64,000 bases of DNA from Anaeromyxobacter sp. (GCA_049840735.1 JASGJN010000020.1:768001-832000), one strand, 5' to 3'; positions 29,600 through 58,520 are shown, counted from the stretch's first letter. Program-made: numbers and translations. Notes: generated from the letters alone by a model not told the origin.

Positions 29600-30018
29600 C
29601 GCTCTCCGCTCGCAGTTCCGCGCCGTCACGGCGCGGATCCGCACGCCTCCCGGGAGCTCCCGCTCTTCCGACTGCGGTCGCGCCTGACGATACCAGCGGT
29701 TCGCGAACCCGAGCACGCGCTCGATGGCCGGCATGACGTCGATGACGAGATCCTGGAACAGCCAGCGACACACGGGCGCGCCTTCGCGCTGGTCCTCCCG
29801 CGAAAGCCCAGCCTCCGAAGCCGATCTCCCAGCTGCGCCCAGGCCGCGTAGGTCGTGACCTCCACGACCACGTCGACATCCTGCGTGAAGCGGGGTCGCG
29901 GTGCCGCCGGATCCGTGACGAAGAGGTCGACGACCGCGCCCCCCACGAAGATCACCTCGTCCTTGAGATCGCCGAGCGCCACGACCGCCCGCGCCAGCAT
30001 GTCGAGGTTTGGCGTCAT
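29600..30018 (-). pseudogene. Nucleotidyltransferase (AbiEii/AbiGii-like toxin), frameshifted and 3'-truncated
   Basis: VIFVGGAVV...RFTQDVDVV NTase motif; continues in another frame (IDVMP...LGFANRWY) and breaks off after IRAVTA. Confidence 0.65.
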
Positions 30019-30563
30019 CGCTTGCTCCTCGAGAGCATCCGCTGGAGGAGGTCGCCTGCGACCTGCCGCTCCCGCGCTGAGCCACCGCGGATCGCGTCGA
30101 CGAGGGCGGCCGCGTCGTACATCGGCGCGTCGGCGAGGATCGCCCTGATGGTGGCCTGCGACGAGTAGAGCGGCGAGAACGACTCCCCCCGCGCCGTTCC
30201 CTCCGGGTCCGGCCAGACGGGCACCGAGCCGTCGCCGTGCGCGATGAGGTTTCGCAGCACAGGCGCAGCGTATCCGGTCGGATGGCCTCGCGTGAGCTGA
30301 CCTCGGACGACGGGGAACGCGTACTTCACGCCGTGGATCAGGAACTCCAGCAGGTTCTGCACCTGCACGCCGATGCCCTTGGGTCCGCTGGCGACCGCGA
30401 GCCTGGACAGGAGGCCGCGCTGCACCGCTGCGTGGACCTCGGACACACTCAACCCCAGCGCCGCCGCGACTTGGGGATACGACCAGGCGGCGTCCCTTCG
30501 GAGCGCGAGGTTGATCAGGACCAGGACGTCCTGAGGCTTGAGCTGGGGCGCCTTCCCTGGCAC
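30015..30563 (-). CDS. HTH protein, probable antitoxin partner of the NTase (type IV TA-like)
   Basis: LKPQD, HTH-like WSYPQVAAALGLSVSEVH, LLEFLIHGVKYAFP; coupled to the NTase gene. Confidence 0.65.
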   Translation of the reverse strand: MPGKAPQLKPQDVLVLINLALRRDAAWSYPQVAAALGLSVSEVHAAVQRGLLSRLAVASGPKGIGVQVQNLLEFLIHGVKYAFPVVRGQLTRGHPTGYAAPVLRNLIAHGDGSVPVWPDPEGTARGESFSPLYSSQATIRAILADAPMYDAAALVDAIRGGSARERQVAGDLLQRMLSRSKR

Positions 30564-30598: not shown

Positions 30599-30610
30599 GC
30601 TTCGCCCCAG

Positions 30611-30792
30611 GGCCCCGCTCGCCGGCCCCGCTCGCCGGCCCCGCTCGCCGGCCCCGCTCGCCGGCCCCGCTCGCCGGCCCCGCTCGCCGGCCCCGCTCGC
30701 CGGCCCCGCTCGCCGGCCCCGCTCGCCGGCCCCGCTCGCCGGCCCCGCTCGCCGGCCCCGCTCGCCGGCCCCGCTCGCCGCAACCGCTCGCC
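30611..30792. repeat. Tandem repeat: 13 perfect copies of GGCCCCGCTCGCC plus one degenerate copy
   Basis: Direct reading: 30611-30779 = 13 x 13 bp, then GCAACCGCTCGCC. Confidence 0.95.
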
Positions 30793-30917: not shown

Positions 30918-30930
30918 TGGTTGCGGGGGC
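30918..30930. repeat. att core copy 1 (tRNA-Met 3' end duplication)
   Basis: TGGTTGCGGGGGC identical to 58441-58453; preceded by a hairpin at 30884-30909. Confidence 0.85.
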
Positions 30931-30974: not shown

Positions 30975-31277
30975 CTACCCCTTCGCCGCGGACCCGTGGA
31001 GCTCCAGGCCGAGCGCCCGGATGACCCGCATCACCGTGCCGAACTCCGGGTTCCCATCGGGAGAGAGCGCCTTGTAGAGCCCTTCGCGCGTGAGCCCCGT
31101 CTTGCGGGCGAGGCCCGCCATGCCACGCGCGCGCGCGATGTTGCCGAGCGCCGCCGTGATGAAGGCTGGATCCTCGCGCCCCTCCTCCAGGCAGGCCTCC
31201 CAGTACCGGGCGACGTCCGCGTCGGTCTTGAGGTGCGCCGCCGAGTCCCACTTCTTGAGCTTGAACTTGCCTGCCAT
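30975..31277 (-). CDS. Addiction-module antidote protein (HigA-like HTH)
   Basis: WDSAAHLKT, ALGNIARARGM..LARKTGLTREGLYKALS..GNP.F.TV. Confidence 0.88.
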   Translation of the reverse strand: MAGKFKLKKWDSAAHLKTDADVARYWEACLEEGREDPAFITAALGNIARARGMAGLARKTGLTREGLYKALSPDGNPEFGTVMRVIRALGLELHGSAAKG

Positions 31278-31286
31278 TCCCGACTC

Positions 31287-31445
31287 CTAGACCTGCTTCG
31301 CGAGCGCCTTGGCCGCCTCGATGTCCTTCGCCTGCGAGCCCTTGTCACCCCCGGCCAGCAGGATGACCAGCTCGCGCCCTCGCTGGACGAAGTAGATGCG
31401 ATGGCCCGGCCCGTAGTCGAGCCGCATCTCCGAGACGCCACCGCA
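31287..31445 (-). pseudogene. Addiction-module killer (RelE/HigB-like) toxin, N-terminally truncated
   Basis: [18 protein letters not shown]...[14 protein letters not shown]; the expected N-terminal half is missing. Confidence 0.75.
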
Positions 31446-31502
31446 CGTCCTTGGTGATCGCTGGGCCCTGGAGGTACCACGCGCCAGTCGCTTGCTCGAA
31501 CG

Positions 31503-31565
31503 GGCGACGAACTCAAAGGTCACCGTTCCGGGAGTCCCGATCAGTGAATCGCCCCGGGAGGGAGG
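31503..31565. repeat. Intergenic ~65-bp repeat family 2, copy 1
   Basis: GGCGACGAACTCAAAGGTCACCGT..GAGTCCCGATCAGTGAATCGCC aligns with 33276-33342 and 34662-34727. Confidence 0.65.
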
Positions 31566-31614
31566 AACAGTAGCGTTGCCTTCCGAAAGGCGTGCAGTGC
31601 GGAGCAGCCTATTG

Positions 31615-32298
31615 TCAGTATCGCGAACGCAAGCAGATCTCGTACTCGAGTTGCAGTTCTTGTCCCTGGCGTTCTACGTCCACCGTGATCGTCGATGCCG
31701 TCCTGACCCGCTGGTAGACGTCCAGGGCGTCCTCGGGCGTGCGCACCACCATCCCATTCACGCGTCTGACAATGTCGCCGCTCTCAAGCCCTAGCGCGGC
31801 ATAGGTGTAGCCGGGTACCACGAACACCTTGAAGCCCCGCGGCTCTCCGCCCACGAATGCGGGGACGATGCGCAGGCCGTACGATCTACAGCCACCAGAG
31901 GCCGTTGGCGGATCTGCCGTCCAGGCGGCGACGCGGTAGTGGCGGGCTCCCACTCTCTCGACACAGAACTCCTCCATGCCGGGAAGCGGCTGGCAGGAGA
32001 GCGCGCACGTCTTCCGCGACTCGGGAACTGGTGGGTCGCCCACGAAGAGTACGCTAAGGCGAGTCGGATCGAGGGGCGCCCGGACAGCTGGCGGTTGGTC
32101 CTCCGCCGTGAGCACCACTTCCGGACGCCAGAGGAGTGCCATGCTGGCAGCGAAGAACGAGGACACGACGCTCGCGAGACACCACGCCACGCCTCCCAGC
32201 CCGGCCAGGTTTGCCAGGACGTCGACGGCGGTGGTCCTCGGCGGAACCGGCATGCCTTCTGGGCCCAGCAACAAGCATGCCCCTCGCGCCTTGACCAC
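31615..32298 (-). CDS. GspC-like membrane protein with C-terminal PDZ domain
   Basis: TM segment, then RIVPAF..GFKVF...[14 protein letters not shown]...DVERQGQ. Confidence 0.65.
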
Positions 32299-32472
32299 AT
32301 CCTCCCGACAGGACGGGAGTTCCGGGAATGTCCTGCGGCGCCATCTTCATCGGCTCGTGACAGGATGGCATTGCCCTCCCGTTGTCGTTCGCGGTCCCTG
32401 TCAACTTGGCACGCCCCCTGCCCCGTCACTGGTGTAGCCGTTCTCGCGGCCAAGGAGGTTGGGACGCCCTCT

Positions 32473-32620
32473 ACCTGACGGTGAACCCGGCACCGGCCGC
32501 CCCTACGCCCGACATCCAGGGCGCCGTGGAGCGGGCCGCGGCCGGGCTGGACGGCCTCCGGGGCCACGACGTCCGGCGCTCCTTCGTCACCCTGGCGCGG
32601 CGCAGCGGTCGAGCCTGCCG
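32473..32620 (+). pseudogene. Tyrosine recombinase fragment (box II)
   Basis: Translates to AGLDGLRGHDVRRSFVTLARRSG (H-x-x-R motif); no start or rest of gene. Confidence 0.55.
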
Positions 32621-32687
32621 AGCGTACGCTTCTGAACCTTCGGGCAGGGCATCCCTCCAGCGTGGAGGGGGACACGCCGGCAGACGC

Positions 32688-33192
32688 TCACTTCATCTCT
32701 TGGCCCTTCTCTGCAACGAAGTCCGCTACCCACCTTGCCATCGCCCGCACGTCGATGGCGCGGCCATCCTCGACGCGCTTCGAGAATCATGGTGAGCGCG
32801 TTGAGGTGGAGGCTCGTTTCGCGGAACCGCAGCGTGGGGTCGGCACCGTACTTGTCGGTCACCTCCCACCAGCTCAGCCCGTCGACCGACGCCGCCAGGG
32901 CATCCCCGAACACGATCCCGAGCGACTGAAGCTCCCACGTCGCGCTCGCCGGGATGACCTTGGCATCCACGATCTTCTGGAGCAAGTCGAAGTCCCGGGG
33001 GGTGCGCGTGATCCGTTCGCCAGGGAATTGTTCGGCGACGACGCGCGCAACGAAGGAGCGCTGCGTGTCCATGCTGGCGATCAGCTCGGGAGGCAGCGTA
33101 CGGAAAGTCGTGTCCACCGAAGAAGCCCCCTTGGCTTTACCGAAGGAAATGCCCATCGCAATGCACGCCAGCAACGCGAGCCGAGAAGTCAT
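32688..33192 (-). CDS. DUF3806-like protein (apparent frameshift near 32785)
   Basis: LQSLGIVFGDAL...WWEVTDKYG.DPTL...LTMI, continuing SKRVEDG in another frame. Confidence 0.6.
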
Positions 33193-33275
33193 TCCGAACC
33201 CCTCAGACAACATAGCGCGGGTCTGGTCGGTCCGGGGTAGCACTGAGTCTTGCCGGCGCCTTCGCCTGCGTTCCG

Positions 33276-33342
33276 GGCGACGAGCCCGAAGGTCCACCGT
33301 CCAAAAGTCCCGTTCAGCGATCCGCCCGGTGGAGCAGGAAGG
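33276..33342. repeat. Intergenic repeat family 2, copy 2
   Basis: About 10 differences over 67 nt versus 34662-34727 (hand alignment). Confidence 0.8.
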
Positions 33343-33361
33343 GGCTCATCGCGCACCGCCG

Positions 33362-33754
33362 TCAGAAGTACCGCCCCCGCGAGATGATGAAGTCGATCTC
33401 CCCGTACTGCTCCAGCCACTGAAAGCCGTCCTCCGTCGAGCCGTCCATGAACGGTTCCAGGAACCCGAGCACATGGTCGAGCGTACCCTCGGTGAGCTGC
33501 CACGTGAAGGCATTCGGCCCAGTGCACCGGATCCCGGTTCCGCCGCCCCGCTGCACACGCACCCTACACGCATCGACGGCTTCCACTCCCGGGAGCGCCG
33601 AGAGTTCCACGCCCTCCTCCGTGAGCGTGGTGAGCGTCGCCGCTAGGGCGCGAACAACCTCGGCCTCGCTGCCGTAGAGCAGCAGCGTTGGGTTCCGGTC
33701 GGGACCTGCCTCTCCCATGAACTCCAGCTTCATCCGTACCTCCACCTCGACCAT
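33362..33754 (-). CDS. Small hypothetical protein
   Basis: Acidic, globular-looking 123-130 aa ORF with GGAGG RBS before MKLEF. Confidence 0.6.
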   Translation of the reverse strand: MVEVEVRMKLEFMGEAGPDRNPTLLLYGSEAEVVRALAATLTTLTEEGVELSALPGVEAVDACRVRVQRGGGTGIRCTGPNAFTWQLTEGTLDHVLGFLEPFMDGSTEDGFQWLEQYGEIDFIISRGRYF

Positions 33755-33838
33755 GGCTCAACGTTGCAGCGCAACTCCGGTGACGATTCTCACGGTCCAG
33801 CTCCCACCGGCGTCACAACCCGCGGAAGGCCGGGGAAC

Positions 33839-34531
33839 CTACTGCGGCGACCGGATCGCGATCTTCACGGCTTCGATCTCGAGAACGTCGCCGCTCTGAA
33901 GCTCGATCTCGATCCGGCTCGCTTCGCTACCGGCGTGGATGGGGCGCGGGCCGCGCACCTCGTTCACGTATGCGCTCCCTCCCCCACCCCAGGGCTCGCG
34001 CCGGGGAGCCTTCACCAACAAGACGCCCTCTGCTGCGATGCTCACCCTTCCCGCCGCCGTCCTGAACCAGACGAGCGCTGTTCCAGCCGCAAGGTCGAGG
34101 TGCAGTTCCTCGATCACCGCGTCGTGGAGATCAGGCCCTGGCCGCCTCCATCTTGCCTGGGCAGCAGCGACCAGCTGCCGGTCTTCATCGTCGCCAGCTG
34201 ACTGCGCCAAGGCCTCTGCTCGCCGCAGGCAATCATGGGCCTCGTCGATGCGGCCAAGACGGAAGTAGACGTCAGCCAGCGCAACAAGCGTGAATGGCTC
34301 CGGACCTTCGGTGGCAATCGCCTCGTCGTAGTAGCTCGCCGCCCTCAAGAGGTTCCCGTCCTGCTCGCAGAGAAGCCCCGCGGTCTTGCCCAGCAGGGAG
34401 GTGTTTGCTGGCCTGGACGCGCTCGAACGAGTGCGCGCCAACGCTGCCTCCAGGCAAGCGACGGCTTCCCCCACCCTGCCCGCCCGAGCCAATTCAGAAG
34501 CGGCTCGAAGCGGACTGCTCTCATCTTCCAT
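33839..34531 (-). CDS. TPR-repeat protein with C-terminal LHDA-motif domain
   Basis: TPR-like helices (ALADVYFRLGRIDEAHDCLRRA), then LHDAVIEELHLD...IELQSGDVLEIEA. Confidence 0.6.
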   Translation of the reverse strand: MEDESSPLRAASELARAGRVGEAVACLEAALARTRSSASRPANTSLLGKTAGLLCEQDGNLLRAASYYDEAIATEGPEPFTLVALADVYFRLGRIDEAHDCLRRAEALAQSAGDDEDRQLVAAAQARWRRPGPDLHDAVIEELHLDLAAGTALVWFRTAAGRVSIAAEGVLLVKAPRREPWGGGGSAYVNEVRGPRPIHAGSEASRIEIELQSGDVLEIEAVKIAIRSPQ

Positions 34532-34661
34532 GGCCGAGTCCCCGCCTCGAAATCCGCGCGCAACCGTCAGCGTACCAGTGGGACCAACCTCCGCGCAGAC
34601 CCGAGGCGGCTCGCATGATAGCGCGGCCGGAGCGGATCAAGCCGCGGACCAGCATGCCCTC

Positions 34662-34727
34662 GGCGACGAGCTCGAAGGTCCACCGTCTAGGAGTCCCATT
34701 CAACGATCCGCCGGGGGGGGCAGAAGG
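34662..34727. repeat. Intergenic repeat family 2, copy 3
   Basis: GGCGACGAGCTCGAAGGTCCACCGTCTAGGAGTCCCATTCAACGATCCGCC. Confidence 0.8.
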
Positions 34728-34849: not shown

Positions 34850-35590
34850 TTGCCCTGCTCGCCCCCGACGCCACGGCACCCCTGCATCAAAGAAGAAGGC
34901 AGGCCGCGGGTGGTCGAAGCGCCTGCTGCATCACCTTCTGCGGAACGAGCGCTACATCGGGCGGGTGATCTGGAACCGGCGCGAGTGGGTCAAGGTGAAC
35001 GACAGCAGGCGGCGCCCTCTCATCCGGGCCCGGGAGGAGTGGCATGTCCGCGATGAGCCGGCGCTGGCCATCATCGACGCCTCGACCTGGGCCAGAAACA
35101 GCGGCCTCGCGCAAGGGCCGCAGAGCAGACCGGGGAGATTCGAGCGGCTGGAGCGGCCAGGTCCATCCAGGCCCGGATCGATAAGATCACCGAGGCGCTC
35201 GCGGGGATCGGCTACTCCGAGCCGCTGGAGGCGAAGCTGAGATCCGAGGAGGCGCGCCTGCTGGACGCACGTCAGGCGCTGGCCGCCGCGAGCAGGCCCG
35301 TCGCCGCCCCTGCCGTACCCCTGGCGTACTCCAGCAGCGCCGTCCTGGCCCTGCTGGCGAACGCCGGGGCCGCGGTGGCCTCCCGCCCCCAGAAGGCCAG
35401 GGCGCTGCGCCAGGGCGTCGTCGAGGGCATCCTGATGCAGCCCACGCCCGACGGGTATGCGGTGCGCGTGAGCCTGAAAAAGCTCGACCCCTCGGCTCAA
35501 GAGAGCGGAGGGGTCGATGACTACCAGACTGGTTGCGGGGGCGCGCTCGTGACCTTGTCTGCTCCCCTGCTCTTCATGACTCACAGGTGA
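34850..35590 (+). pseudogene. Large serine recombinase remnant (catalytic domain and Zn ribbon deleted)
   Basis: GWSKRLLHHLLRNERYIGRVIWNRREW...LAIID and a coiled-coil region homologous to 56795..58462; ends GCGGALVTLSAPLLFMTHR across the att core. Confidence 0.8.
35530..35542. repeat. att core copy 2
   Basis: TGGTTGCGGGGGC; hairpin at 35484-35517 immediately to the left. Confidence 0.88.
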
Positions 35591-35754: not shown

Positions 35755-36393
35755 ATGGCATCGACCTCCAAGCTCGACGCACTCCTCCGGCTCGCCCGTG
35801 CCGGGCCACTCCGTGCGCGCGACCTGGAGGGGGCCGGAATCCCCAGGACATACCTGCGGCGCCTCACCGACCGCGGCCTCCTCGAGCAGCTCGACCGGGG
35901 TCTCTATGGGCTGCCCGACGCTCCGGTGACCGAGCTTCACTCCGTCGCCCAGGTGGCGAAGCGCATCCCGCACGCGACCGTCGCTCTCCTCAGCGCGCTC
36001 CAGATCCACGGCCTCACCAGTGAGGCGCCGCACGCAGTCTGGCTCCTGATCGATCGGGGTGCGCGGACCCCACGGGTCGGCCAGCCCAGGCTCGAAGTCG
36101 TCAGGGCGAGCGGCGCGGCGCGCACACATGGCATCGAGCGCCACGTGATCGAAGGGGTGAATGTGGGTATCACCACGCCGGCGAAGACAGTCGCGGACTG
36201 CTTCAGGTACCGGCGCCACGTCGGGCTCGAGGTCGCGCTCGCGGCCCTCCGGGCGTACCTGGGTCGGCCCAAGGCCACTCGGCCGGAGCGCTCCCGGCTG
36301 CAGCGAGGCTCCCCCATCGACGCCCTCATCGAGGCGGCGAAGGCCGACCGCATCTACTCCGTGCTCCGTCCCTACCTGGAGGCGCTCGCATGA
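35755..36393 (+). CDS. Type IV TA AbiEi family antitoxin
   Basis: GLLEQLDRGLY, LLSALQIHGL, TTPAKTVADCFRYRRHVGLEVALAAL. Confidence 0.88.
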   Translation: MASTSKLDALLRLARAGPLRARDLEGAGIPRTYLRRLTDRGLLEQLDRGLYGLPDAPVTELHSVAQVAKRIPHATVALLSALQIHGLTSEAPHAVWLLIDRGARTPRVGQPRLEVVRASGAARTHGIERHVIEGVNVGITTPAKTVADCFRYRRHVGLEVALAALRAYLGRPKATRPERSRLQRGSPIDALIEAAKADRIYSVLRPYLEALA

Positions 36394-37310
36394 AGCGGGA
36401 GGGTCCGAACGTTGGCGCGCGCGCCCGCGTCCAGCTGCTGCGGCTGGCGAAGGAGCGCGGGGAGGACTTCCAGCTGGTCCTCTTGCGCTACGCACACGAG
36501 CGCCTGATGTATCGCCTTGCAGCCTCCCGGCACGCAGCTGCGTTCGTTCTCAAGGGAGCTGCGCTCTTCACCGTCTGGACCGGGCATCCGCACCGGGCCA
36601 CCCGTGACCTCGACCTGCTCGGCTTCGGTGATCCCTCGCAGGAGCGGCTGCGGGCTACCTTCGTCGAGGTCGCCCATCTTCCCGTTCCCGACGACGGGGT
36701 GGAATTCGACGGAGCAGGGATCGAGGTGGGGCCCATCCGCGAGGGCGAGGAGTACGGCGGCGTCCGCGTGCACCTGGTCGCGCGCATCGTCACGGCCGTC
36801 ATCCGCCTCCAGATCGACGTCGGCTTCGGGGACGCGATCACCCCTGCCGCCGTCGAGCTCGACTTCCCTCCCCTCCTCGACTTCCCAGCCCCTCGACTGC
36901 GGGCCTATCCCCGGGAAACCGTCGTCGCCGAGAAGCTCGAGGCGATGGTGAAGCTCGGCCTCGCGAACAGCCGCCTGAAGGACTTCTACGACCTCGCGGA
37001 GCTCTCTCGACTGTTCCCCTTCGACGGCGCGCTGCTAGCCGCGGCCATCCGCGCCACGTTCGAGCGGCGCGGGACCGAGCTCCCGCGAGGTCTACCCGTA
37101 GCGCTCACCTCGGCTTTCGCGGAGGACCCGCAGAAGCAGGAGCAGTGGCGCGGCTTCGTGAGGAAGGCGGGCGTCCAGGATGCCCCCAGCCTTGGCTCGA
37201 CAGTCGCGCTTGTAGCCGCGTTTGCCGGTCCAGCGCTCGCCGCTGGCGAGGGTACTACTCGATGGGCGGCGAGCTGGCCACCGGGCGGTCCGTGGATCCC
37301 GGTTCGCTAG
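36390..37310 (+). CDS. AbiEii/AbiGii family nucleotidyltransferase toxin
   Basis: FVLKGA, RATRDLDL, QIDVGFGD, AEKLEA, NSRLKDFYD. Confidence 0.9.
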   Translation: MKREGPNVGARARVQLLRLAKERGEDFQLVLLRYAHERLMYRLAASRHAAAFVLKGAALFTVWTGHPHRATRDLDLLGFGDPSQERLRATFVEVAHLPVPDDGVEFDGAGIEVGPIREGEEYGGVRVHLVARIVTAVIRLQIDVGFGDAITPAAVELDFPPLLDFPAPRLRAYPRETVVAEKLEAMVKLGLANSRLKDFYDLAELSRLFPFDGALLAAAIRATFERRGTELPRGLPVALTSAFAEDPQKQEQWRGFVRKAGVQDAPSLGSTVALVAAFAGPALAAGEGTTRWAASWPPGGPWIPVR

Positions 37311-40464: not shown

Positions 40465-41223
40465 TCAAGGCCCCACCCCACTCGATGGCGCGCTCACGAC
40501 TAGGCGTCGGAACGCTTCTGTGACTCGGGCCTGAGCTTCTGCTGCTGACTCGTTCCAGATGCCCGCTAACACTGGAACGATCTGCGCAGTCTCCAAGGGA
40601 ACACAGGGCGACCGCGAACGGCGCCGAAGGGTCCATCCGACTCGGGCAGCAGCCGGTCCCTCGGCATCGCTGCCACCGCAGCACGGCCTCTCGCAGACGA
40701 AAGCATCGAGGGGTTCACCGAAAACCAGCAGCCCATCTCGGCGGCACGAGCAGATCTGCCGGTCAGTTCCCAGATACCAGTGAAGTACGAACTTGCCTGC
40801 GGATGGCTCTTCCTGGAGGACATCGAGGATCCCTCCAGCTGCGCCACGGCTATGCAACGAAACGATCCGCCCTCCGGCTGTTCGGCAGAGGCGCAGGATG
40901 TGCCTGAGAACGTCTTGCTGGCGCCCGAGATGCTGGCGATGCAGAGGGGATCCATCTAGCCCCACTTCTCCGACGTAGGCAGTCTTCACCAGTAATGCTT
41001 CAAACCGCGAGAGCTCGTGCTCGTGCGTCGCCACAAGTTCTGGGTGAAGGCCGACCGCGGTGCGGATCCGGCTCGCCGAAGGTACGAGCTGCGAAGTTCC
41101 GTGGAACGCAGAAGGAACTGTCGTGACCGACAGAACGTAGATGCGACGTGCAACGCACTCCCGCACGACCCACGCCGCGTCAGGGTAGAGATCGAGATGG
41201 CAGTGCAGGTCTACTACAACCAC
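40465..41223 (-). CDS. qatD: Qat system TatD family nuclease (compensating frameshifts in the 3' part)
   Basis: DLHCHLDLY, GLHP, GEVGLD, HSR, HWY; FSVNP...ESDGPF in the alternate frame; last gene of the qat operon. Confidence 0.85.
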   Translation of the reverse strand: MVVVDLHCHLDLYPDAAWVVRECVARRIYVLSVTTVPSAFHGTSQLVPSASRIRTAVGLHPELVATHEHELSRFEALLVKTAYVGEVGLDGSPLHRQHLGRQQDVLRHILRLCRTAGGRIVSLHSRGAAGGILDVLQEEPSAGKFVLHWYLGTDRQICSCRRDGLLVFGEPLDAFVCERPCCGGSDAEGPAAARVGWTLRRRSRSPCVPLETAQIVPVLAGIWNESAAEAQARVTEAFRRLVVSAPSSGVGP

Positions 41224-42482
41224 GCGATGGTACCCACGAACGACCGCAACTCGTTCAAGCCCCGCCGAACCACGTCGACGTATAGCGCTCGCTGAGCGGT
41301 GTCACTCGGCAGCGGCCCGGACGCGACAGTCCAGCGTTCGAGATCGCGCTGTTTCAGCGCCGCGGTAGCGAGGCGGACGGCAAGCACGTCGTCGTTGCTT
41401 CCTTCGACGGCCAGGTTCACAGCGTAGTACGGGGTCTTGTCCTTCACGGCCGCGTAATCCATCGCCGCGCGACGAATGAGGCAAGGCACGCAGCGGCCGC
41501 ACTGCTTGTTCAGCCGCTTCCCCTTCCCGCACGAGTACGACAGGTGCGCGAGCTTCCTAATCCTGTCGTCACCGCATGCCTTGAGCATCTCGCCCTTCGT
41601 CTTGCTGCCGTACGGGTTCAAGATCTTCGCTTCGATGCCGACAGCATCAAGAACCTTCTGTATGGAGCCGATGAAGTACGGATGCGTCGTTCTCGTGCTC
41701 AGGCTCCCCAGTCGGCGATACGTGAGCGGCGGGTTGATAGCGATGAGCCCGTTCTCGGGCACGTACACAGTCACGGGCGCACCGATGTCCGCGACGAGCG
41801 CGCTGGCCGCGAGCGCGCCATAAGAAATGAACAGCAGGGAGCGCGCTCTGCACGACGGCTCATATGGTGGCTTGAACCGTTCCCGCACCCGCCCCTCGAA
41901 CCGGTGCGCTCCGAGGCCGATTGCAGTCGCAAGCTCCGCCTGCACACCACCCTCCTTCGGCGACGCCTGACTGACAAGAAGAGGGGACCTGCCCTTCGCG
42001 ACGAGATCAAGCGCTCCGATGAGGCTATCCATCCCACCCGAGAACAGGCATACGCAGTCGCGGTCAGTATTCGTTTGCTTGACGTCCGGCGGTCCGATGC
42101 CGCCATCTTTGAAAGACACCCTCCAGATGTCCCCTGTCAAGAACGTGAGTGCGTCCGCCAGCGCGCGCCCATGCGCGTTCCACGGGGCTGGTTCCATGAG
42201 CTCGACCGTCAGGTCGATCTCGCGCGTCCAGCCGTCGGCCGCTTCGTTGCGCAACACGAACCGATCTGCGGCGAAGACCGAGAGCGCGAAGGACAGGAAG
42301 TCCCATGCCCGAACGCTCGGGGCACGCGGTAACTGCTTCGTCGACTTCAGCAGCCATTTGCCCAACCCAGGCAAGCGCTCCGTTCCCGTGTTGTAGAGCG
42401 CGACGGGGACACCCCCCTGTGCCTTTGCGGCCGCCTTCGCACGCGCGCGGTCGGGCCCTGCGTACACGCGGGTCAGCGCCAT
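41214..42482 (-). CDS. qatC: Qat system QueC-like protein
   Basis: LFSGGMDS, ENG..INPPL..RRLGSLSTRTTHP, TKGEM, SCGK, CGRCVPCLIRRAA. Confidence 0.9.
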   Translation of the reverse strand: MALTRVYAGPDRARAKAAAKAQGGVPVALYNTGTERLPGLGKWLLKSTKQLPRAPSVRAWDFLSFALSVFAADRFVLRNEAADGWTREIDLTVELMEPAPWNAHGRALADALTFLTGDIWRVSFKDGGIGPPDVKQTNTDRDCVCLFSGGMDSLIGALDLVAKGRSPLLVSQASPKEGGVQAELATAIGLGAHRFEGRVRERFKPPYEPSCRARSLLFISYGALAASALVADIGAPVTVYVPENGLIAINPPLTYRRLGSLSTRTTHPYFIGSIQKVLDAVGIEAKILNPYGSKTKGEMLKACGDDRIRKLAHLSYSCGKGKRLNKQCGRCVPCLIRRAAMDYAAVKDKTPYYAVNLAVEGSNDDVLAVRLATAALKQRDLERWTVASGPLPSDTAQRALYVDVVRRGLNELRSFVGTIAWL

Positions 42483-43324
42483 CTCGCCATCTCCTCTTCG
42501 ACCACCTCAACAAGCCTCCTCACCAGCGCCGTCATAGAGGCGGGAGTGAGTGAGTCGCCCCAGCTGTCCATCACCTCACCGCCAACCGCCTGCGCAGCTT
42601 CGTGGATGACCTCACGGATGTCGTTCTCACGTTGCACCGCAGCCGCGGGACTTGCGGCGCCTGCAAGTGCTCGTCCCGCATCGCCGGCCACAGCGACGAA
42701 GACGAGCTCCGCAGCCAGAGCGAGGGTTGCGATCCGAATCGCATTTGCGTCCAGTGCGGTGGGGTCGAAGACATCGACCCCCTCCAGCGCAGTCGCAAGC
42801 GCCTCCCCTACAGCGATCCGCGCCCATTCGTCGTCAAGAATGCCGGGGGGGCAAAACGCATCGACGATCCGCGACACCGCGGCGTCCGCTGGGAGCCCCA
42901 CGAGCGTTCGGACATCGACAGGGGCGCCCAGAATCGGTGGCAACCCAGCGACAGCCCGCGATACGCCGGCGAGAGCGGCGCCAGCGCGACTTGCGGCTCG
43001 AGCGACGCGCCGGCTTCCAGTGTGCGCTCCGCCGGACGCGTGCGCCCATGAGCCGAGCGCCCGCCGCGCGTCGGCTCGAGATCCCGTGCGCGCGCAATGC
43101 CGCAGCGAGATGCGAAACCCGGAGAAGCGCCGCGGCTCGGCTTCCGGGGCAGGTCCGTCCGACTCAGGTCCTTGTTCCGCCGGGCCCGGCGGTTGCGAGG
43201 CGCCTTCTCCGCCGCCCTGATCCTCACCGACATCTGGAGGCGGCATGCTGCCTCCGCCTTCCGCCCAGGGCGGCACGAGAGGCGAACCAGGCCGAGCGTC
43301 TCTCTTCGATTGCGATGTCCCCAT
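42473..43324 (-). CDS. qatB: Qat system protein QatB
   Basis: MGTSQS...PLVPPWA N-terminus; position between the ATPase and the QueC-like gene. Confidence 0.82.
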   Translation of the reverse strand: MGTSQSKRDARPGSPLVPPWAEGGGSMPPPDVGEDQGGGEGASQPPGPAEQGPESDGPAPEAEPRRFSGFRISLRHCARTGSRADARRALGSWAHASGGAHTGSRRVARAASRAGAALAGVSRAVAGLPPILGAPVDVRTLVGLPADAAVSRIVDAFCPPGILDDEWARIAVGEALATALEGVDVFDPTALDANAIRIATLALAAELVFVAVAGDAGRALAGAASPAAAVQRENDIREVIHEAAQAVGGEVMDSWGDSLTPASMTALVRRLVEVVEEEMARWR

Positions 43325-43340
43325 CTGACAACTCCACCCG

Positions 43341-45083
43341 CTACTTTCGCAGGAAGCCCGTCAGCCTAAATGCTGATGCGTCGCCCTTGTTGATCGTCAC
43401 GGGGAGAGTCTCCACATACGCGCGAAGCTCGGCCTCGCACTCAGGAGCCGATTTCGCCAGGATGATCGCGCCATGAACCCCCTGGACGCGCTTCGACCAC
43501 TCCGCCTGACGCATCGCGCGGATAAGTTCGGTCATCACGATGACTCGGTCGGCTGGCGCAAGTTCCTCCGCTATCCTCGCTGCAGCTGGGGAAGCGACGG
43601 AATCGACCAGCAGTAGAGCGTCGATGGCCTGCCGTACGGCTTCCGTGATCCCGGCGCGCGGGAGCGCGGGCGCCATGACATCGCGGCTCAAGAAGACTGC
43701 CGGCTTCAGGTCAATCTTGTCATCGAACGGAGGATCCATCCCTCGCCACCGCTCGACGAACGCCTCGAACTTCTTCCACTCCGGCGGCAGCTCAGCCTGA
43801 TTCTTATCAGTTGCTGGCGCGAGCACCTCTGTGCCCGTCCCCGTCATGACGATTCGGTAGAGCGCGAGCGTCGCCGCCTCGTCCGTGCCGCGCTCGAACA
43901 CAGCGAGCTTTGCAAGCGTTGCAAGGTCGACGGCCATTCCTCTGCTCGCAGCAAGCTCAGCGCGCAGCATGATCGAGTTCAGAAGTCGCTTCACGATCCG
44001 TGGGTTGCCCTGAATAGCGGGCGCGGACACAAGCATCGGCGCGAGCTGATCGGCAACGCTGAGTTGGTCCAACATGCCACCCGGCTTTCCGGCCAACTCG
44101 TCGATGTCCTTTCTGGTGAACGTCGCGCCTCGCCAGGCGTTCTGAAGCGATGACATCAGTACCGACTGCACGTCCTTGAGCTTGCCAGGAGCCTTCAGCG
44201 AGACAAACAGCGAGAACATGTACGCGCGAAGATCTTCGGGCCCCACCTGCGGCACACGAAGCGGAACTTGGATGACCTTGTCCAAGTAGTCGCGGATGTG
44301 AGGGGCCTCCGGATCGCTGAAATGCTTGGCGACCGAGTGTCGAATCATGCCCTCGTCAGCAGCAATCACAAAGGCCGTTCGCGGCATGAACAAGAACAGG
44401 CGCATAGCCTCCAGCGTGCCGATGGCGACGTCGGGCAGGCATCTGTCCAAGTTGTCGACGAATAGCACAAGAGTTCGGTCCGACTCCTCGAGGACTTCGC
44501 CAAACTCTTTGCGGAACAGGTGAATCTGCTTGGGCGGGGTCTTCTTCTTCTCCGGCTTGATTAAAGCCTGCGCCTGGGACTTTGCCGATGAGGCACCCTG
44601 CTTCAGTGCCTCGTAGTCTGCCGGCTTTCCCTCGCCGGACCCCAGCGCAGCGAGCGAATGGATGGCCGACCCCACCGGGAGAGGCACGCCGGTGGCGACA
44701 CTAGCCCCGAGATCAACCGCAAGCGCAATCGCGCGAAAATAGTTCACTCGCTTCGCGAGCTTGAGCGCCTTCTTGTACAGCGGCGTGTCCTTCTCGAGCT
44801 GAGCGAGCAACTTTGCCGCGACGACCTCCATCAACGCGGCGCGAGCGTCATCAAACCCCTGATACAGCCAAGCATCAAAAGTAATGACGAGCGGCTTCGA
44901 CTTACCCACCGATGACAGCCGCGCCTGAACTAGCTGAAGGACTGTCGACTTCCCCGTCCCCCAGCCTCCGAACACTCCAACCGATATCGGGAGCAGTTCG
45001 GGTTTTGTGACCAGCGCCGCGATCTGGTCGGCGACTTCAGTAAAGTTCAGGAAGTCCTGGTCGGCCTCGCTGTCTCGCCACAT
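43341..45083 (-). CDS. qatA: Qat system KAP-family P-loop ATPase
   Basis: MWRDSEADQDFLNF, GGWGTGKST, FDAWLYQG, VDNLDRC, YLDKVIQVP, GNPR.VKR. Confidence 0.9.
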   Translation of the reverse strand: MWRDSEADQDFLNFTEVADQIAALVTKPELLPISVGVFGGWGTGKSTVLQLVQARLSSVGKSKPLVITFDAWLYQGFDDARAALMEVVAAKLLAQLEKDTPLYKKALKLAKRVNYFRAIALAVDLGASVATGVPLPVGSAIHSLAALGSGEGKPADYEALKQGASSAKSQAQALIKPEKKKTPPKQIHLFRKEFGEVLEESDRTLVLFVDNLDRCLPDVAIGTLEAMRLFLFMPRTAFVIAADEGMIRHSVAKHFSDPEAPHIRDYLDKVIQVPLRVPQVGPEDLRAYMFSLFVSLKAPGKLKDVQSVLMSSLQNAWRGATFTRKDIDELAGKPGGMLDQLSVADQLAPMLVSAPAIQGNPRIVKRLLNSIMLRAELAASRGMAVDLATLAKLAVFERGTDEAATLALYRIVMTGTGTEVLAPATDKNQAELPPEWKKFEAFVERWRGMDPPFDDKIDLKPAVFLSRDVMAPALPRAGITEAVRQAIDALLLVDSVASPAAARIAEELAPADRVIVMTELIRAMRQAEWSKRVQGVHGAIILAKSAPECEAELRAYVETLPVTINKGDASAFRLTGFLRK

Positions 45084-45384
45084 GGTCGGTGAACGTAGCA
45101 CGCAGCGTCGACATCAAGCACAACTGTGTATGCGACAGGGTGTCGTGATCTCGGCGGATGGGCGACAGCACCCCGCCACACCTTCATTCACGGTAAGATC
45201 GAACCGCAGCAACGATGCCGCTGCGGTTCACGCCCACTCGGTCACTGGCCGCATCCGCCCGGCTCCAAGGCCGCAATCGATTTCCCGGCGCCTCCACCAC
45301 TCAACTACCGGAGAACATAGGGGCCCGCGCAAGCGAGCTTCTTCGTGTCCCCCACGTCTCTCCCGTCCTCTCCGTCTCCTGTTC

Positions 45385-45638: not shown

Positions 45639-45923
45639 CTAGCGGCGGAAAATGCCGTTCGGATCGTTCACGACCCGGCCGCTGGAGTCTCGTTCAACGC
45701 CGACCATACGATCGAACACGGCGCGCATCTCCGGAGGAAGCGCCTCCTTCTTCTTCCTCTCGTCGGCCACGTGGAACCGCCAGCCTAAAAAGAACGCGAC
45801 GCCTAGCGTGCCGACGCCGCCGATCGCGGCCCACAACACTGAGAACACGCTGTCAGTTGCGTATCCGCCGGCGAAGCCGCCGAGCACCGCCCCTACGAGC
45901 AACGTGATGACCACCGGTCCCAT
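45639..45923 (-). CDS. Small two-TM membrane protein
   Basis: Two hydrophobic segments; GGAGG RBS. Confidence 0.6.
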   Translation of the reverse strand: MGPVVITLLVGAVLGGFAGGYATDSVFSVLWAAIGGVGTLGVAFFLGWRFHVADERKKKEALPPEMRAVFDRMVGVERDSSGRVVNDPNGIFRR

Positions 45924-46050
45924 TTGCGCCTCCCCTGTCTCTCAGATGATATCACCAGCATACCAGCCGATCGGACACGAACACATGACGTGCGACATCG
46001 TTCGTGCGCTAATATTCCGGGCCGAACGCAGTCGTACTCCGGGGGTGAGG

Positions 46051-47403
46051 ATGGCTGACGCGCCGATTCACGAGTTCGAGAAGGTTCGGTTCTTCGCGGA
46101 GCACCTCGAGACCAAGGGCCAGCGAGTTGAGTATTCGCGGATCCGCTCCCTCGACTTCGCGCGCATCACGCAGAATTCGTCCGGCCAGGCGCACCACCAG
46201 ACGATCCTTCTGGTCGAACTTACGGACGGGTCGAAGCCTGTCGAATTCTCGGTGGTCCCGAACCGCTCGATCTTCGGGGGAGACGACTACGACGCGCGAG
46301 CCGGCGCGCTCGACGCGCTCCATACTTTCCTGGCTCGCGCGACCTATGACCAGCGACTCCGGTATTACCTCACGGAGCTAAGCGAACGCGGGTACTTCAC
46401 GTACGGCGACAAGCGATTCCATCCTGACGGAACTGTCGCGCTCGAGAACGGCCGCACGGTCTCCGTCACCGAGCACGCGCTCTCGGTTCAGCCCCACAGC
46501 ATCACGATCGAGATACCGGCGGCCAAGAAGGGACTTCAGCGATTCAAGGACTTTTGGGACTCACCAAGAGTCCAGATCCTCGCGTTCACGAACAACGACT
46601 GCATGATGGCGCTTCTCAAGCTCGTCTACGGCATCCAGTGGTTCAAGATGGATGACCTCCGGTTCGGGGCAACGAGTTTGCGAAAGCCCGGCGAGACCAC
46701 CAGGCCACCTGACCACGTACTCTTCAGCTCACCGGCACCGAGGAACCGTTCTGGGTCCGAGGCCGCTACTGATTTCCGAAACGTTGACTCAGAGCGGGTG
46801 CTCGACGCCTGCAAGGCGATGGCCGCGCACCTCGCTGACTTCGCCGCTCCACGAGTTCAGGCCTCGAAGCTGCAGTGGGGGTTCGGGTACCAGATGCTCG
46901 ACGTGAAGAGCCCCGAGGCCGTCCAGGCTTTCGCGAAGTGCCTGCCCGAATCGGCATTCCTCGGTTACTCCTTCGGCGTGCTGTGTATGCTCGCCTGCGT
47001 TCACCTGCCGGCATTCCCGGGGACCGAGGGGTATCAGAAGGCGCGAACCCTCGTCGGGACGGAACTGTGGTACCGGATGCTCGACGGGCTTCCGAAGCTC
47101 GTCCATACAGCCATGGGCGAGAAGCTGACGGAGATGATGGTTCGCACAGCCATCGCGGAGATCGACGCGGCGTTCAAGAACGTTCAGGAGTGTGCCGGCC
47201 TCATGAACGCGCATGCGGACAACCCGCTCGCGCCTCTGCAACGGGCACTCGCGAAGCGCACGGGCCTTTGGGTAGCGGACGACGCGGTAAACCTCGACCG
47301 GTCGCTCCACGACGAAACCAAGAACCTACTCGCACTGGGTGCTGGCGTCCTGGGGGTCCCGGTGAGCCCCTCGGCAGCGAAGTCGGCCAGCTTCGGCCGT
47401 TAG
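46051..47403 (+). CDS. Hypothetical protein
   Basis: 450-codon ORF with natural composition; RBS before MADAPIHEF; stop overlaps the convergent gene. Confidence 0.7.
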   Translation: MADAPIHEFEKVRFFAEHLETKGQRVEYSRIRSLDFARITQNSSGQAHHQTILLVELTDGSKPVEFSVVPNRSIFGGDDYDARAGALDALHTFLARATYDQRLRYYLTELSERGYFTYGDKRFHPDGTVALENGRTVSVTEHALSVQPHSITIEIPAAKKGLQRFKDFWDSPRVQILAFTNNDCMMALLKLVYGIQWFKMDDLRFGATSLRKPGETTRPPDHVLFSSPAPRNRSGSEAATDFRNVDSERVLDACKAMAAHLADFAAPRVQASKLQWGFGYQMLDVKSPEAVQAFAKCLPESAFLGYSFGVLCMLACVHLPAFPGTEGYQKARTLVGTELWYRMLDGLPKLVHTAMGEKLTEMMVRTAIAEIDAAFKNVQECAGLMNAHADNPLAPLQRALAKRTGLWVADDAVNLDRSLHDETKNLLALGAGVLGVPVSPSAAKSASFGR

Positions 47404-48032
47404 TAGAAGCGGAGACGTGCTTCCCACTGCAGCGCGGAAGCACGGTCAGATGCTTCCCTCCGAACGGCTTCAAGCGCCCCGGGCCGGTAACGGTAGCTCG
47501 AGCACCGACTGTTGTAATCCTGGACGTACCTGTTGAACGTATCAACCCGGCCATTGTTGGTCACCAGCGGCTTCATGTATCCGATCCGCTCGTCCTCGAA
47601 GATGCAGTAGCGGAGTTCGCTTATCGAGAGTGACCTCCCAGACCCGACGGGCGGCTTCGTTTCCGTGGAATCCGACCTACCGTACGAGGATCGCACCCCG
47701 TCCCCGGAGTTCCCAGAAGAACTCGCCGGAGACGAGTACGACGCGCTGCCGGAGCTCGCGGTGTATCGGCTCGGTTTTGTGCTCGCCGTGTCGCACATCC
47801 AGACCAAAGCCGCGATACCCCCAACGACCCACACCTTGGCAGGGATCGCGCCAAGCAGTGCTGCCAGCCCCCCAGAGCCGTTCGCTGCGGGTCGCGGGGA
47901 TGGGGCCGGGGTCCGCGGTATCGGAGGCGGCGGTGCGCGGGCGGCCCGCTCTGCCGCATCCACGTCAGCAGCAACGTCGGACACCAGGTCAGCGAGCCCA
48001 GAGAAGCCAACGGGATCCGAGGAGCCGCTCAT
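47400..48032 (-). CDS. Single-pass membrane protein with a two-Cys extracytoplasmic domain
   Basis: Pro-rich linker, TM (VWVVGGIAALVW), Ser-rich linker, ETKPPVG...ELRYC...FNRYVQDYNSRC. Confidence 0.7.
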   Translation of the reverse strand: MSGSSDPVGFSGLADLVSDVAADVDAAERAARAPPPPIPRTPAPSPRPAANGSGGLAALLGAIPAKVWVVGGIAALVWMCDTASTKPSRYTASSGSASYSSPASSSGNSGDGVRSSYGRSDSTETKPPVGSGRSLSISELRYCIFEDERIGYMKPLVTNNGRVDTFNRYVQDYNSRCSSYRYRPGALEAVRREASDRASALQWEARLRFY

Positions 48033-48036
48033 GAGG

Positions 48037-49098
48037 TCACCTCAACTTCCCTTGCCGCATGAGTTCCGCGAGCAACGCCGCGTTCGAAGGCACGTTCGCC
48101 ATCCTGTCCAGGGTTGCGATGTCGTTGTCTAGGAACTCGACGACGCGGGGGACCTCGGCGAAGACGGCGCGGAGCATCGAGGTCAGCCTCCGAGCGGCCC
48201 ATAGCATCGCATGCTCGTTATGTAGATCGACGGCTGTCGAGCGAACCCGGTTGACGAGCTGGATGCTCGGGGTGTGATCGATCCCCCTCGCCATCGCACT
48301 GAGCTGGATCGGTTGCGCCACCGCGTCCCAGTTTCGTACCACCTGCTCGATGCGTTCGATGAGACGATCGAGGGTTGCCCGCTGTGCTCCCTTCTTCGCC
48401 GCCGAAGTGAGAGCGCCGAGTAGCTGGCCGACGGCCACTGACTCGAGTTCCAGGAACCGCGCCGCATCAACCTCGTACGAGTCAACGAACTGGTCGACGA
48501 GCAACGGCGCATGCTGGCGCCCCTTGCCGGTCGTGCGGTCCACAATCGCGGTCACCGTCTCTACGAGTTGACGGGTCGGCATGCGGTCGAGCGCGGTGCG
48601 CACCGCAGCTACATAGAACCTGCGCTGTTCTGCGATCGCCTCCTCAACGAGGTCCTGCTGCAGAACCTCGGGCATCTCCGCCGCGGCGCGGTCCTCGTTG
48701 ATTGCGTCGAACACCTCCTCAGGATCCGTCTCGTCGTGAGCGGTGGCGAGCGTGACGATCCATTCGACGGCAGCCCCCACGGGCATGGAAGTCGTGGTGA
48801 TCGCCAGAGCAGACGCCGCAAGATTCGCCATCGCCAACGGAGGCAAGCCGTTCGCGCGGACAGCGGAAGCGGTGGCCAGATCGCGGACTAGGTTCGTGCA
48901 ACTCTCTGGATCCACCCCCGGTAGCCAGCTCACCTCAACCGAAACACGCTGCCTCGGGTTGGTGAGATCCGCACGCGCCTTTGCGCACACGTCGGAGTCC
49001 ATCATCAGCGCGCGGTCCTCGGCGAGCTGCATGATGCGGCGGCGACTGTCTCTGGTAGTGGCACCGAGGAGGTGGAAGGGGTTCTCGCGTAGGTTCAT
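48037..49098 (-). CDS. Helical protein with J-domain-like N-terminus (no HPD)
   Basis: NPFHLLGA...AKARADLTNPRQR resembles the first and last helices of J domains. Confidence 0.55.
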   Translation of the reverse strand: MNLRENPFHLLGATTRDSRRRIMQLAEDRALMMDSDVCAKARADLTNPRQRVSVEVSWLPGVDPESCTNLVRDLATASAVRANGLPPLAMANLAASALAITTTSMPVGAAVEWIVTLATAHDETDPEEVFDAINEDRAAAEMPEVLQQDLVEEAIAEQRRFYVAAVRTALDRMPTRQLVETVTAIVDRTTGKGRQHAPLLVDQFVDSYEVDAARFLELESVAVGQLLGALTSAAKKGAQRATLDRLIERIEQVVRNWDAVAQPIQLSAMARGIDHTPSIQLVNRVRSTAVDLHNEHAMLWAARRLTSMLRAVFAEVPRVVEFLDNDIATLDRMANVPSNAALLAELMRQGKLR

Positions 49099-50535
49099 GG
49101 CGTCCTGAAGCCGATGGCCGTGGGCTTCGCGTCTTCCTTCGAACGAGATGGAGCGGACTCGAGCGCCGCCTCCAAGCTGCGGAGGTCGATGGTATCGAGG
49201 CCCCGCTTGGCTGCGAGTCTCGCGCCCTCCCGCACCACGAACGCCACATCCGAAAGCGGTCGGCCGACGAGCTTCACCGCAAGAGTTGTGACGTCGACCG
49301 CAATGCCACCTGGGATCCGGGACAGAACACTCGACAGTAGCGACCGGACCTCCAACTCACCTGGCATCCCGACTTCGATGACGTGGTCGAACCTGCCGCG
49401 GCGCAAAATCGCGGGGTCGATCATCTCGATCCTGTTCGTCATCCCGATGACCAGGACGCGGTTCTCGACAGCTTCAGGCATGCGGCGGAGAAACTCCGCA
49501 ACCTCTTCAACGTGATGAAGCCCCTGCCCACCGCCCGCCTGTCGATCCGACAGGAACGACTCCATCTCATCGATCACGATAACCGAGGGCGACGCCTTGA
49601 TCGCGTCGTCGAAGACCTTCGCGATCTTCCTGCCGGTTTCGTGGATGTACGGGCTGCCGATGGTGCTCGAATCGACGGAGAAGCTAGGCCAGCCGAGGTA
49701 CTCGATCAGCCGCTCGATCGCGAACGTCTTTCCCGATCCAGGTGGGCCGTACAACGCAACCGGCGCCGGGAACTGAAGCCCCAGCGGGGCGTAGCGACTC
49801 TCGTTGTCAATCAGGTCGATGACGTGTTCGAGGAAAAAGTTCTCGAGCGCAGCGCGTCCTGGCAGCGTGAATGGCTGACGGGACGGAGAACCGGTGGGGC
49901 CAGCCTTGGGCTGCTTCCCACCACCCTCCGAGCCGGCGTTCACGAGGGTACCGCCGGCGCCGGGAACTGTGTCGGCAGCAGCGAAGCCCGCCGCATCAAG
50001 AACGCTCTTCAAGTCAGGGGTAGTCAGTCGTCCGACTAGCGAGACTAGTCGTCTGAACGACGTCGTCGAGACCCGAACTCCGCCGGTCAGCCACATCCCG
50101 AGCACTACGTCATCCGATAGCGCTGGGGCGAGGGACCAGGTCGGCAGCAGCCGCGAGATCCGCTCCACGTAGAGAGCGTCATGCAGCGGCGCATCCCGCG
50201 TGATGCGACGTGTCTCGTAAAAGGCGATGGCGAAGCTCATCGCCTCGGCCTTGTTCCACGGCCCTCGGGACTCCACTACGGGGCACACCACCTGATTTGC
50301 TGAACTCTCGAAGAAGGCGATCTGCTCGCCGGCAAACGATACGTAGCGAGGCGCAACTTGATCGAGCAGCCTTGCATCGGTCCATCGCTGCAGTAGTGCC
50401 TTCCGGACAACCAGCGCGCGTCCGCCTGAGCTTGTCTCGTACACCTGCCACCCGGGGCCCTCGAAGAGGGCCCGGCGAGACGTGTTGCCCTGTTCCAGCC
50501 GAAACCCTGAAGGCAACCAAGGATTCGATGGCCAT
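49095..50535 (-). CDS. AAA+ ATPase (classic clade) with N-terminal domain; likely +1 frameshift near 50520
   Basis: GPPGSGKT, VIVIDEME, TNRIEMIDPAILRRGRFD; ATG at 50535 overlaps the Hsp70 stop and gives MAIESWLPSG if one T is removed. Confidence 0.85.
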
Positions 50536-53033: not shown

Positions 53034-53386
53034 GCATTCGCCTTCCGAAGGAGCACGGTTCCTGCCCGAACGAGCTGGCTCTCGCCCATGAGGATGGGCT
53101 CGAGCATCTGGTCGATGACGAGTGCATCGTCGGCCGCGAAGTCTCCGAGGTTCAGCGGAGTGACGGCGGCCCCGGGATCGAACGGTTGGTTCTCGACGTT
53201 TACGAGCCGCAACCCTGCGGCATCGAGCGATTCCGTCAGCTTCTTGACGTACCACCGCAACTGGCTCTCGTAGCGAGCCTTCTCGCCGGCATCGAGCCTG
53301 GCGAGCATTCTCACGAACACTCGCGTGAAGCGCCAGGACTCGACAGCCATGTCGATGAGCGCCTTGCGTTCGTTCGAATCGTTCAT
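53030..53386 (-). CDS. Short GrpE-like protein
   Basis: Helical N-terminus, then GLRLVNVENQPFDP...LEPILM...LVRAGTVLL resembling the GrpE head; ATGA overlap with Hsp70. Confidence 0.6.
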   Translation of the reverse strand: MNDSNERKALIDMAVESWRFTRVFVRMLARLDAGEKARYESQLRWYVKKLTESLDAAGLRLVNVENQPFDPGAAVTPLNLGDFAADDALVIDQMLEPILMGESQLVRAGTVLLRKANA

Positions 53387-55615: not shown

Positions 55616-55676
55616 CTCACCCCGCTCCGACCCCTTACTCCAAGTCGTCGGGAGTGAGGGGTCGGAGCGGGGTGAG
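55616..55676. repeat. 26-bp inverted repeat with 9-nt loop
   Basis: CTCACCCCGCTCCGACCCCTTACTCC / GGAGTGAGGGGTCGGAGCGGGGTGAG, 25 of 26 Watson-Crick plus one U-G. Confidence 0.9.

Positions 55677-56794: not shown

Positions 56795-56798
<4 letters not shown>
56292..56798 (+). CDS. Small protein coupled to the recombinase (possible directionality factor; start uncertain)
   Basis: GTGA stop/start overlap with the recombinase; only the C-terminal ~60 aa look globular. Confidence 0.4.

Positions 56799-58520
<1,722 letters not shown>

Follow-up and report, generated by a model that had tools for sequence, protein, structure and literature searches.

Repeat copies and genes at the locus

The DNA analysed here is a 64,000-nucleotide stretch of an Anaeromyxobacter sp. 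genome (GCA_049840735.1, JASGJN010000020.1:768001-832000; hereafter the window), in which a short repeat separates small genes within a genomic island at tRNA-Met. An earlier note on this DNA had picked out a ~65-bp sequence at 31503, 33276 and 34662, and three co-oriented plus-strand copies are indeed present at these positions. Copies 2 and 3, which had been said to differ at about 10 of 67 nucleotides (nt), share 57 of 67 nt (E 5e-14 in a search of the entire 6.67-Mb genome), while copy 1 displays ~75% identity to copies 2 and 3 (E 0.001 and 0.013, respectively). The weak partial copy previously placed near 33779-33837 does exist but is full-length, although degenerate, and occupies 33776-33836. 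It matches the other window copies at 35-38 of 61-62 positions and is not significant by itself (E 0.16 in a small set and 4.8 genome-wide); its support is its position, as a clear unit is located directly upstream of the homologous gene in a related genome, G021. A profile search of the 6.67-Mb genome revealed no significant copy beyond copies 1-3. The four units are as follows:

31501..31562, plus strand: repeat unit 1; its left end stands in place of the N-terminal third of a toxin gene
33274..33334, plus strand: repeat unit 2
33776..33836, plus strand: degenerate full-length unit (fourth copy), weak alone; position shared with the clear unit in G021
34660..34721, plus strand: repeat unit 3, ~150 bp ahead of a truncated large serine recombinase gene

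The array sits between the attachment (att) cores at 30919 and 35531 of a broken large-serine-recombinase element, which is one of several stacked at tRNA-Met. The other features of the locus are listed below:

30919..30929, plus strand: left border of the element, marked by the att core of the tRNA-Met serine-recombinase elements; a family distinct from the repeat
30975..31277, minus strand: addiction-module antidote gene (dnstrm_HI1420)
31287..31500, minus strand: Gp49/HigB-like toxin gene, 5'-truncated and decayed
31615..32298, minus strand: PDZ-like gene (weak Pfam match, below the cut-off)
32500..32620, plus strand: scrap with an H-x-x-R stretch that we take to be tyrosine-integrase-like, no profile match standing behind the label
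32587..33192, minus strand: DUF3806 gene, present in 1 of the 92 family genomes
33362..33733, minus strand: acidic orphan gene with an Imm32-like lead (Atlas 0.87)
33839..34531, minus strand: TPR gene fused to an Imm50-like module (a lead, Atlas 0.86)
34880..35541, plus strand: large serine recombinase remnant; the att core at its end (35531) forms the right border of the element
56795..58462, plus strand: intact large serine recombinase gene, its end overlapping tRNA-Met (58441-58517, minus strand); no unit nearby

The four whole cargo genes have a G+C content of 0.63-0.66, compared with 0.73 for the genome. The view that every segment is a one-gene cassette does not hold, as the interval from copy 1 to copy 2 contains the PDZ-like gene, the integrase-like scrap and the DUF3806 gene. 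The acidic orphan gene was found in 5 of the 92 genomes. The 230-residue TPR/LHDA open reading frame (ORF) consists of a TPR gene, which stands alone in genomes G014 and G005, and a second module; the TPR half is 74% identical to a gene located ~44 bp behind an Rhs gene in G014. This place behind an Rhs gene is the usual position of an immunity gene. The tail of the Rhs core was considered as the source of the repeat and rejected, since the G014 Rhs locus contains no match to it. Several of the cargo genes resemble orphan immunity genes, like those of rAID-1 loci. Other arrays additionally carry GNAT, APH, hydrolase and metallo-β-lactamase-fold genes. A second island of the same genome (G000:C13:281145-281752) carries a broken copy of the TPR gene beside an antidote gene and an integrase scrap, with no unit.

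The repeat family

Searches with a pattern, followed by two sequence-only models, detected the repeat in related genomes, and 28 metagenome stretches also contain it. The second model matched 25 of 92 genomes of the Anaeromyxobacter-like family at E<=0.002 and 15 of 92 at E<=1e-5, 11 of the latter having supplied training sequences. Four weak matches inside long ORFs (the second in G020, the second in G023, and those in G030 and G055) were dropped before loci were counted. In a sample of the phylum outside the family, 0 of 141 genomes matched. An exact-pattern scan of genome contigs returned two matches in an unrelated group, taken as chance; in viral contigs one search gave a single match to the left arm alone and another gave none, and plasmid and phage collections contained no match. 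The repeat was thus found only in the Anaeromyxobacter-like family, as far as these searches extend. A literature search that took in few subscription papers and no supplements yielded no description of it.

The unit is ~56 bp long and comprises a CCGG end, a 25-bp left arm, a right arm, a second CCGG and a run of G. The left 25-bp arm is conserved in sequence, while the right arm occurs in three types. In 80 family members the end anchors are 47 to 57 nt apart, a distance that varies in single-base steps, with 50, 51 and 52 nt each being frequent. Because the distance varies by single bases no reading frame is kept, showing that the unit is non-coding and excluding a coding remnant. The peptide SLNGT...WTF that had been read from the copies is found in copies 2 and 3 and partly in copy 1, but is missing from the fourth copy and has no kept frame in the family; it simply reflects the similarity of the DNA.

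Units form co-oriented arrays

The collection contains 84 units in 48 non-redundant loci, 14 of which have two or more. All 50 units of these 14 multi-copy loci are co-oriented, with none reversed. Replication-fork bias was ruled out as the source of this co-orientation by four closed genomes in which, with the terminus assumed to lie opposite dnaA, six loci run against the fork and four with it. The 34 segments between units, as counted with an in-house ORF caller and with the fourth window copy left out, comprise 13 that are empty (<200 bp), 14 with one gene (antisense in 11), 3 with no called gene and 4 with several genes; hence 27 of 34 are empty or contain one gene, a feature that, like the uniform orientation, resembles integrons. 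Gene-less units in tandem have a period of 68-82 bp. Each locus examined is part of an island or neighbours an orphan gene; the sites include tRNA-Met, -Lys, -Glu, -Pro and -Gly, rlmD and places elsewhere.

The earlier description of a co-oriented, non-attC array of variable genes nested in an element is borne out by these data. The tRNA-Met locus of G021 has three units but mostly other genes than the window, showing that the flanking genes are not invariant.

The unit could instead be a regulatory element, such as an operator, a promoter or a transcript-processing signal, that travels with mobile immunity or accessory genes. This is consistent with its frequent location ahead of an antisense gene (22 of 71 neighbours on the left, at a median of 113 bp), with the same place being kept at homologous genes and with the strong sequence conservation of the left 25 bp. 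Units, however, also lie downstream of genes (38 contacts at 3' ends compared with 32 at 5' ends), occur in gene-less tandem runs, clip genes, and have neither a conserved RNA structure nor an Rfam match. A regulatory role is improbable in the light of these data. Gene direction is mixed in some loci.

Junctions and gene recurrence

Genes recur beside the repeat in new company. The acidic orphan has three different 3' neighbours (in the window, in G021 and in a metagenome stretch) and in each case has a unit on one or both sides; an APH gene, a cysteine-rich gene and two orphans likewise recur beside the repeat with new neighbours. The junctions themselves are sharp. From the right CCGG onwards, two contigs agree in every base up to the end of the shorter one (~80 bp), while their unit bodies differ, and units that are 88-98% alike in three genomes start at CCGG after unrelated flanks. 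The left junction falls at CC/GG in 55 of 80 units and the right junction at C/CGG in 60 of 80. The left ends of units clip genes, namely the toxin gene in the window and a resolvase gene in three loci; the intact toxin gene resembles the start of the unit at the clip point. Right ends are located ahead of clipped recombinase genes, or are joined through the G-run to a recombinase arm.

Junctions at both CCGG ends, together with the failure to find an associated enzyme (see below), make a tiny transposable element a serious rival explanation. The unit would be a non-autonomous element resembling a miniature inverted-repeat transposable element (MITE), inserting where CCGG is followed by a G-run and preferring island DNA and its own neighbourhood. 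Deletions that it later caused between copies or next to them would shuffle genes as a by-product. The terminal CCGG motifs could represent a target duplication or an inverted repeat of 4-6 bp, and such an element accounts for the two sharp ends as well as, or better than, cassette joining does. It also accommodates units that change independently of both flanks, tandem units at a 68-82 bp period, genes clipped on either side and close cargo homologues that lack units. As far as the available text of PMC3733652 describes them, MITEs, repetitive extragenic palindromic (REP) sequences and bacterial interspersed mosaic elements (BIMEs) are likewise short non-coding repeats with sharp ends and tandem runs with short linkers; the present repeat differs in being low-copy, found in islands, strictly co-oriented and without a stable hairpin, and in not flanking the Y1 genes examined. 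Transposition of this kind does not explain why 50 of 50 units are co-oriented when CCGG is symmetric and the replication fork does not set the orientation. In addition, the terminal repeat is no longer than 4-6 bp, units do not flank any of the Y1 and IS110 genes examined, the copies examined are in islands or beside orphan genes, and no empty allele was seen in 67 clusters, a test of low power with one genome per species. On balance a MITE-like origin is rather unlikely.

Comparison with known sites and repeats

Integron attC sites are defined by R boxes, RYYYAAC and GTTRRRY, in the available text of PMC5027507. Of 80 repeat units, 7 carry AAC close to the left end and 2 carry GTT close to the right end. 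Mean folding z was -0.08 and -0.09 for the two strands, with values below -1.5 in only 5 and 6 of 65 units, and there was no alifold consensus structure; single folds, alifold, averaged pair probabilities and covariation gave no signal for a hairpin or an RNA structure. The earlier statement that the copies lack attC-style inverted symmetry is correct in that no attC-like fold is present, although the unit ends do show a short CCGG symmetry. Complementarity at the L box was slightly above that of shuffled arms in a permissive test (5.47 versus 5.24 +/- 0.07), while extended complementarity with the unit's own flank or the previous flank did not exceed shuffles. The integron integrase profile TIGR02249 was over its cut-off in 0 of 5 genomes, two of which are only ~80% complete (best score 86 bits versus 265), and of the 12 weak candidates that an in-house attC heuristic picked out in 616 kb, none coincided with a unit. 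The repeat thus differs from attC in having no AAC/GTT R boxes, no hairpin on either strand and no IntI in the five genomes; it is conserved in one arm as sequence and not as a fold, and it has junctions at both ends.

REP sequences of the genome are built from different words, which occur more than 100 times compared with three to four copies of the repeat, excluding the generic REP identity that the earlier note had named as fatal to its proposal. In the main text of surveys of REP and HUH elements a term search did not find Anaeromyxobacter named. Rfam contained no match for the repeat. Domains V-VI of group II introns were rejected, there being no RF00029 match at E<=10 and none at 15 intron ends of the genus. 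One genome, G025, has 14 group II intron ends and 10 IS110-family transposase matches, and at L143:1430-1760 what we take to be the 3' part of a group II intron reverse transcriptase gene abuts the right end of a unit in antisense.

These observations bear on the proposal that the unit is a degenerate form of a known repeat, be it an attC site with changed core triplets, a REP or a group II intron end. The unit is about as long as the shortest attC sites (57 bp) and the AAC triplet is not important per se, both according to the portion of PMC5027507 available, and the L-box complementarity lies marginally over shuffles. By contrast, the absence of a fold, the rarity of AAC and GTT, the lack of an IntI over the cut-off, the different REP words and the failure to match either the Rfam intron model or real intron ends mean that this class of explanation is mostly refuted computationally and is highly improbable.

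The copies had also been proposed to be attachment arms of a serine or tyrosine integrase, left by stacked integrations and resembling the tails of the tRNA-Met recombinases. In keeping with this proposal, 11 of 48 loci are within 5 kb of a tRNA call, a few loci have the right end of the unit joined through the G-run to the arm that follows an att core, and modules of the form arm-(gene)-unit occur. The repeat and the tRNA-Met large serine recombinase arms are indeed in the same islands, and the G-run at the right end of the unit resembles the att core and in some cases is joined to the arm. There is, however, no other sequence likeness: the profile gave no match at the four window att cores (30919, 35531, 39974 and 58442), and the tail peptide is not conserved. 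The repeat also does not follow recombinase 3' ends; a different arm family does. Units are present in islands at tRNA-Met, -Lys, -Glu, -Pro and -Gly and at rlmD, the integrases differ where one is seen, and both orientations relative to the tRNA occur. Moreover, the conserved part is 25-55 bp from the right junction, which is too far for a serine-integrase half-site. For the tRNA-Met recombinase the integrase-arm explanation is largely refuted, and for integrases in general it is very improbable.

The arm that follows the serine-recombinase att core belongs to a second family of ~90 bp, seen in L162, L026, L131, L153, L156, L160 and L123. It is joined through a G-run to tRNA remnants, to att cores or to the right ends of units.

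Search for a partner enzyme

Within 3 kb of the 48 loci there are nine small resolvases, four large serine recombinases, four Y1 genes and two tyrosine recombinases. Integron integrase, Y1, Y2, IS110, large serine recombinase and small resolvase were each considered as the partner and none was linked to the repeat. When 24 small-resolvase loci were taken independently, 22 had no unit beside them within the DNA covered and the other two overlap, representing one place in G021. None of 19 Y1 loci contained a unit, and no Y1 or IS110 gene examined was flanked by units. For one-ended transposition of the IS91/ISCR type, the Y2 transposase profile PF04986 matched in 0 of 5 genomes, with controls equally blank. 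An XerD-like head was also not evident, as tyrosine-recombinase matches were within 3 kb of 2 of 48 loci and none headed an array.

Upstream of the small resolvase in L140, L126, L245 and L294 lies a palindrome of 14-20 bp whose two central bases vary; it likely serves that enzyme as a crossover site. The unit in L131 has 11 bases in common with this palindrome.

The surrounding island

The four att cores at 30919, 35531, 39974 and 58442 represent stacked integrations at tRNA-Met, of which only the last has an intact recombinase; the best relatives of that enzyme carry the name Anaeromyxobacter. The island contains a complete QatABCD defence system at 40465-45101 (PADLOC; QatA E 5e-159, with QatB, QatC and QatD). 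An AbiEi/AbiEii pair and a PDC-M21A-like gene that adjoins a broken nucleotidyltransferase gene are located at 35755-37310 and 29626-30563. About 13 exact tandem copies of a 13-bp unit at 30610-30790 lie directly left of the element border. At 45652-53273, large unknown genes are clustered with one Hsp70-like and one AAA-ATPase-like gene, as labelled from the translations. Upstream of the intact recombinase, 55200-55690 is non-coding with a strong C/T skew and is closed by an inverted repeat. The D-arm region of tRNA-Met (58478-58512, plus strand) loosely resembles the left arm of the unit, with ~19 matches and a gap, probably by chance.

Discussion

We favour the view that this non-coding, family-specific 56-bp repeat, which is no integron site, serves as the joint of an integron-like cassette array, and give it about an even chance. 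It is favoured because co-orientation, short spacers and reshuffled naked genes fit repeated site-specific addition beside an existing site. In such a scheme a trans-acting recombinase would cleave double-stranded DNA at the CCGG ends, so that the CCGG-end junctions would be the work of a site-specific enzyme. New modules would be added beside existing units, generating both arrays and tandem gene-less units, while off-target joins would leave clipped toxin, resolvase and recombinase genes beside units. The array in the window may then act as a store of orphan immunity genes, in the manner of rAID-1. We infer the enzyme, the strand chemistry and the crossover point as parts of this cassette model.

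Several observations weigh against the cassette model. No enzyme among the families examined is tied to the repeat, and neither an excised circle nor reordering between strains was seen. Unit bodies change relative to the left flank in some pairs and to the right flank in others, and hence no single crossover point of the kind seen in integrons is shown. No unit accompanies the toxin-antidote pairs of relatives (79-91% identical), the close TPR-gene homologues (79-82% identity at the DNA level) or four acidic-orphan homologues that are only distantly related. Copy number is uneven, with 23 copies in 7 loci of G021 compared with 1-4 copies in each of the other matching genomes. Finally, the Imm32 (0.87) and Imm50 (0.86) labels are Atlas leads under 0.9.

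A bolder form of the cassette model, which we put forward as a tentative possibility, is that the Anaeromyxobacteraceae have a gene-capture system of their own, neither integron nor rAID-1. Its site would be an unfolded, double-stranded sequence of 56 bp at which crossover takes place at the CCGG of either end, its enzyme would be encoded elsewhere, and orphan immunity genes as well as accessory genes would become stacked within any tRNA island.

The array works like an integron array or a rAID-1 locus, yet lacks the features by which either system is defined. According to the available text of PMC5027507, integron arrays and clusters of attC sites lacking integron-integrases (CALINs) similarly have sites of comparable length that all point the same way and separate short, unrelated genes of low GC with very short flanks, and they include empty cassettes and arrays without a nearby enzyme. 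The rAID-1 loci of Bacteroidales, as described in the accessible portions of 10.1101/471110 and 10.1101/2025.05.03.651265, contain rows of short genes, including likely orphan immunity genes, separated by conserved intergenic motifs, and are defined by an XerD-like recombinase heading co-directional genes. In contrast, the present arrays showed no XerD-like head, some loci have genes in mixed directions, the cargo includes enzymes (GNAT, APH) and the host belongs to another phylum. In the part of PMC13616975 available, no integron cassettes are reported in the myxobacterial genomes of that paper.

Were the unit only a MITE, it would represent a new small repeat family of modest interest. A non-folding site with two junction points would need chemistry other than that of IntI. 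If the cassette model is true, Anaeromyxobacter and its relatives would possess a route for collecting and shuffling genes that is invisible to attC-based tools, and arrays of orphan immunity genes would extend beyond Bacteroidales.

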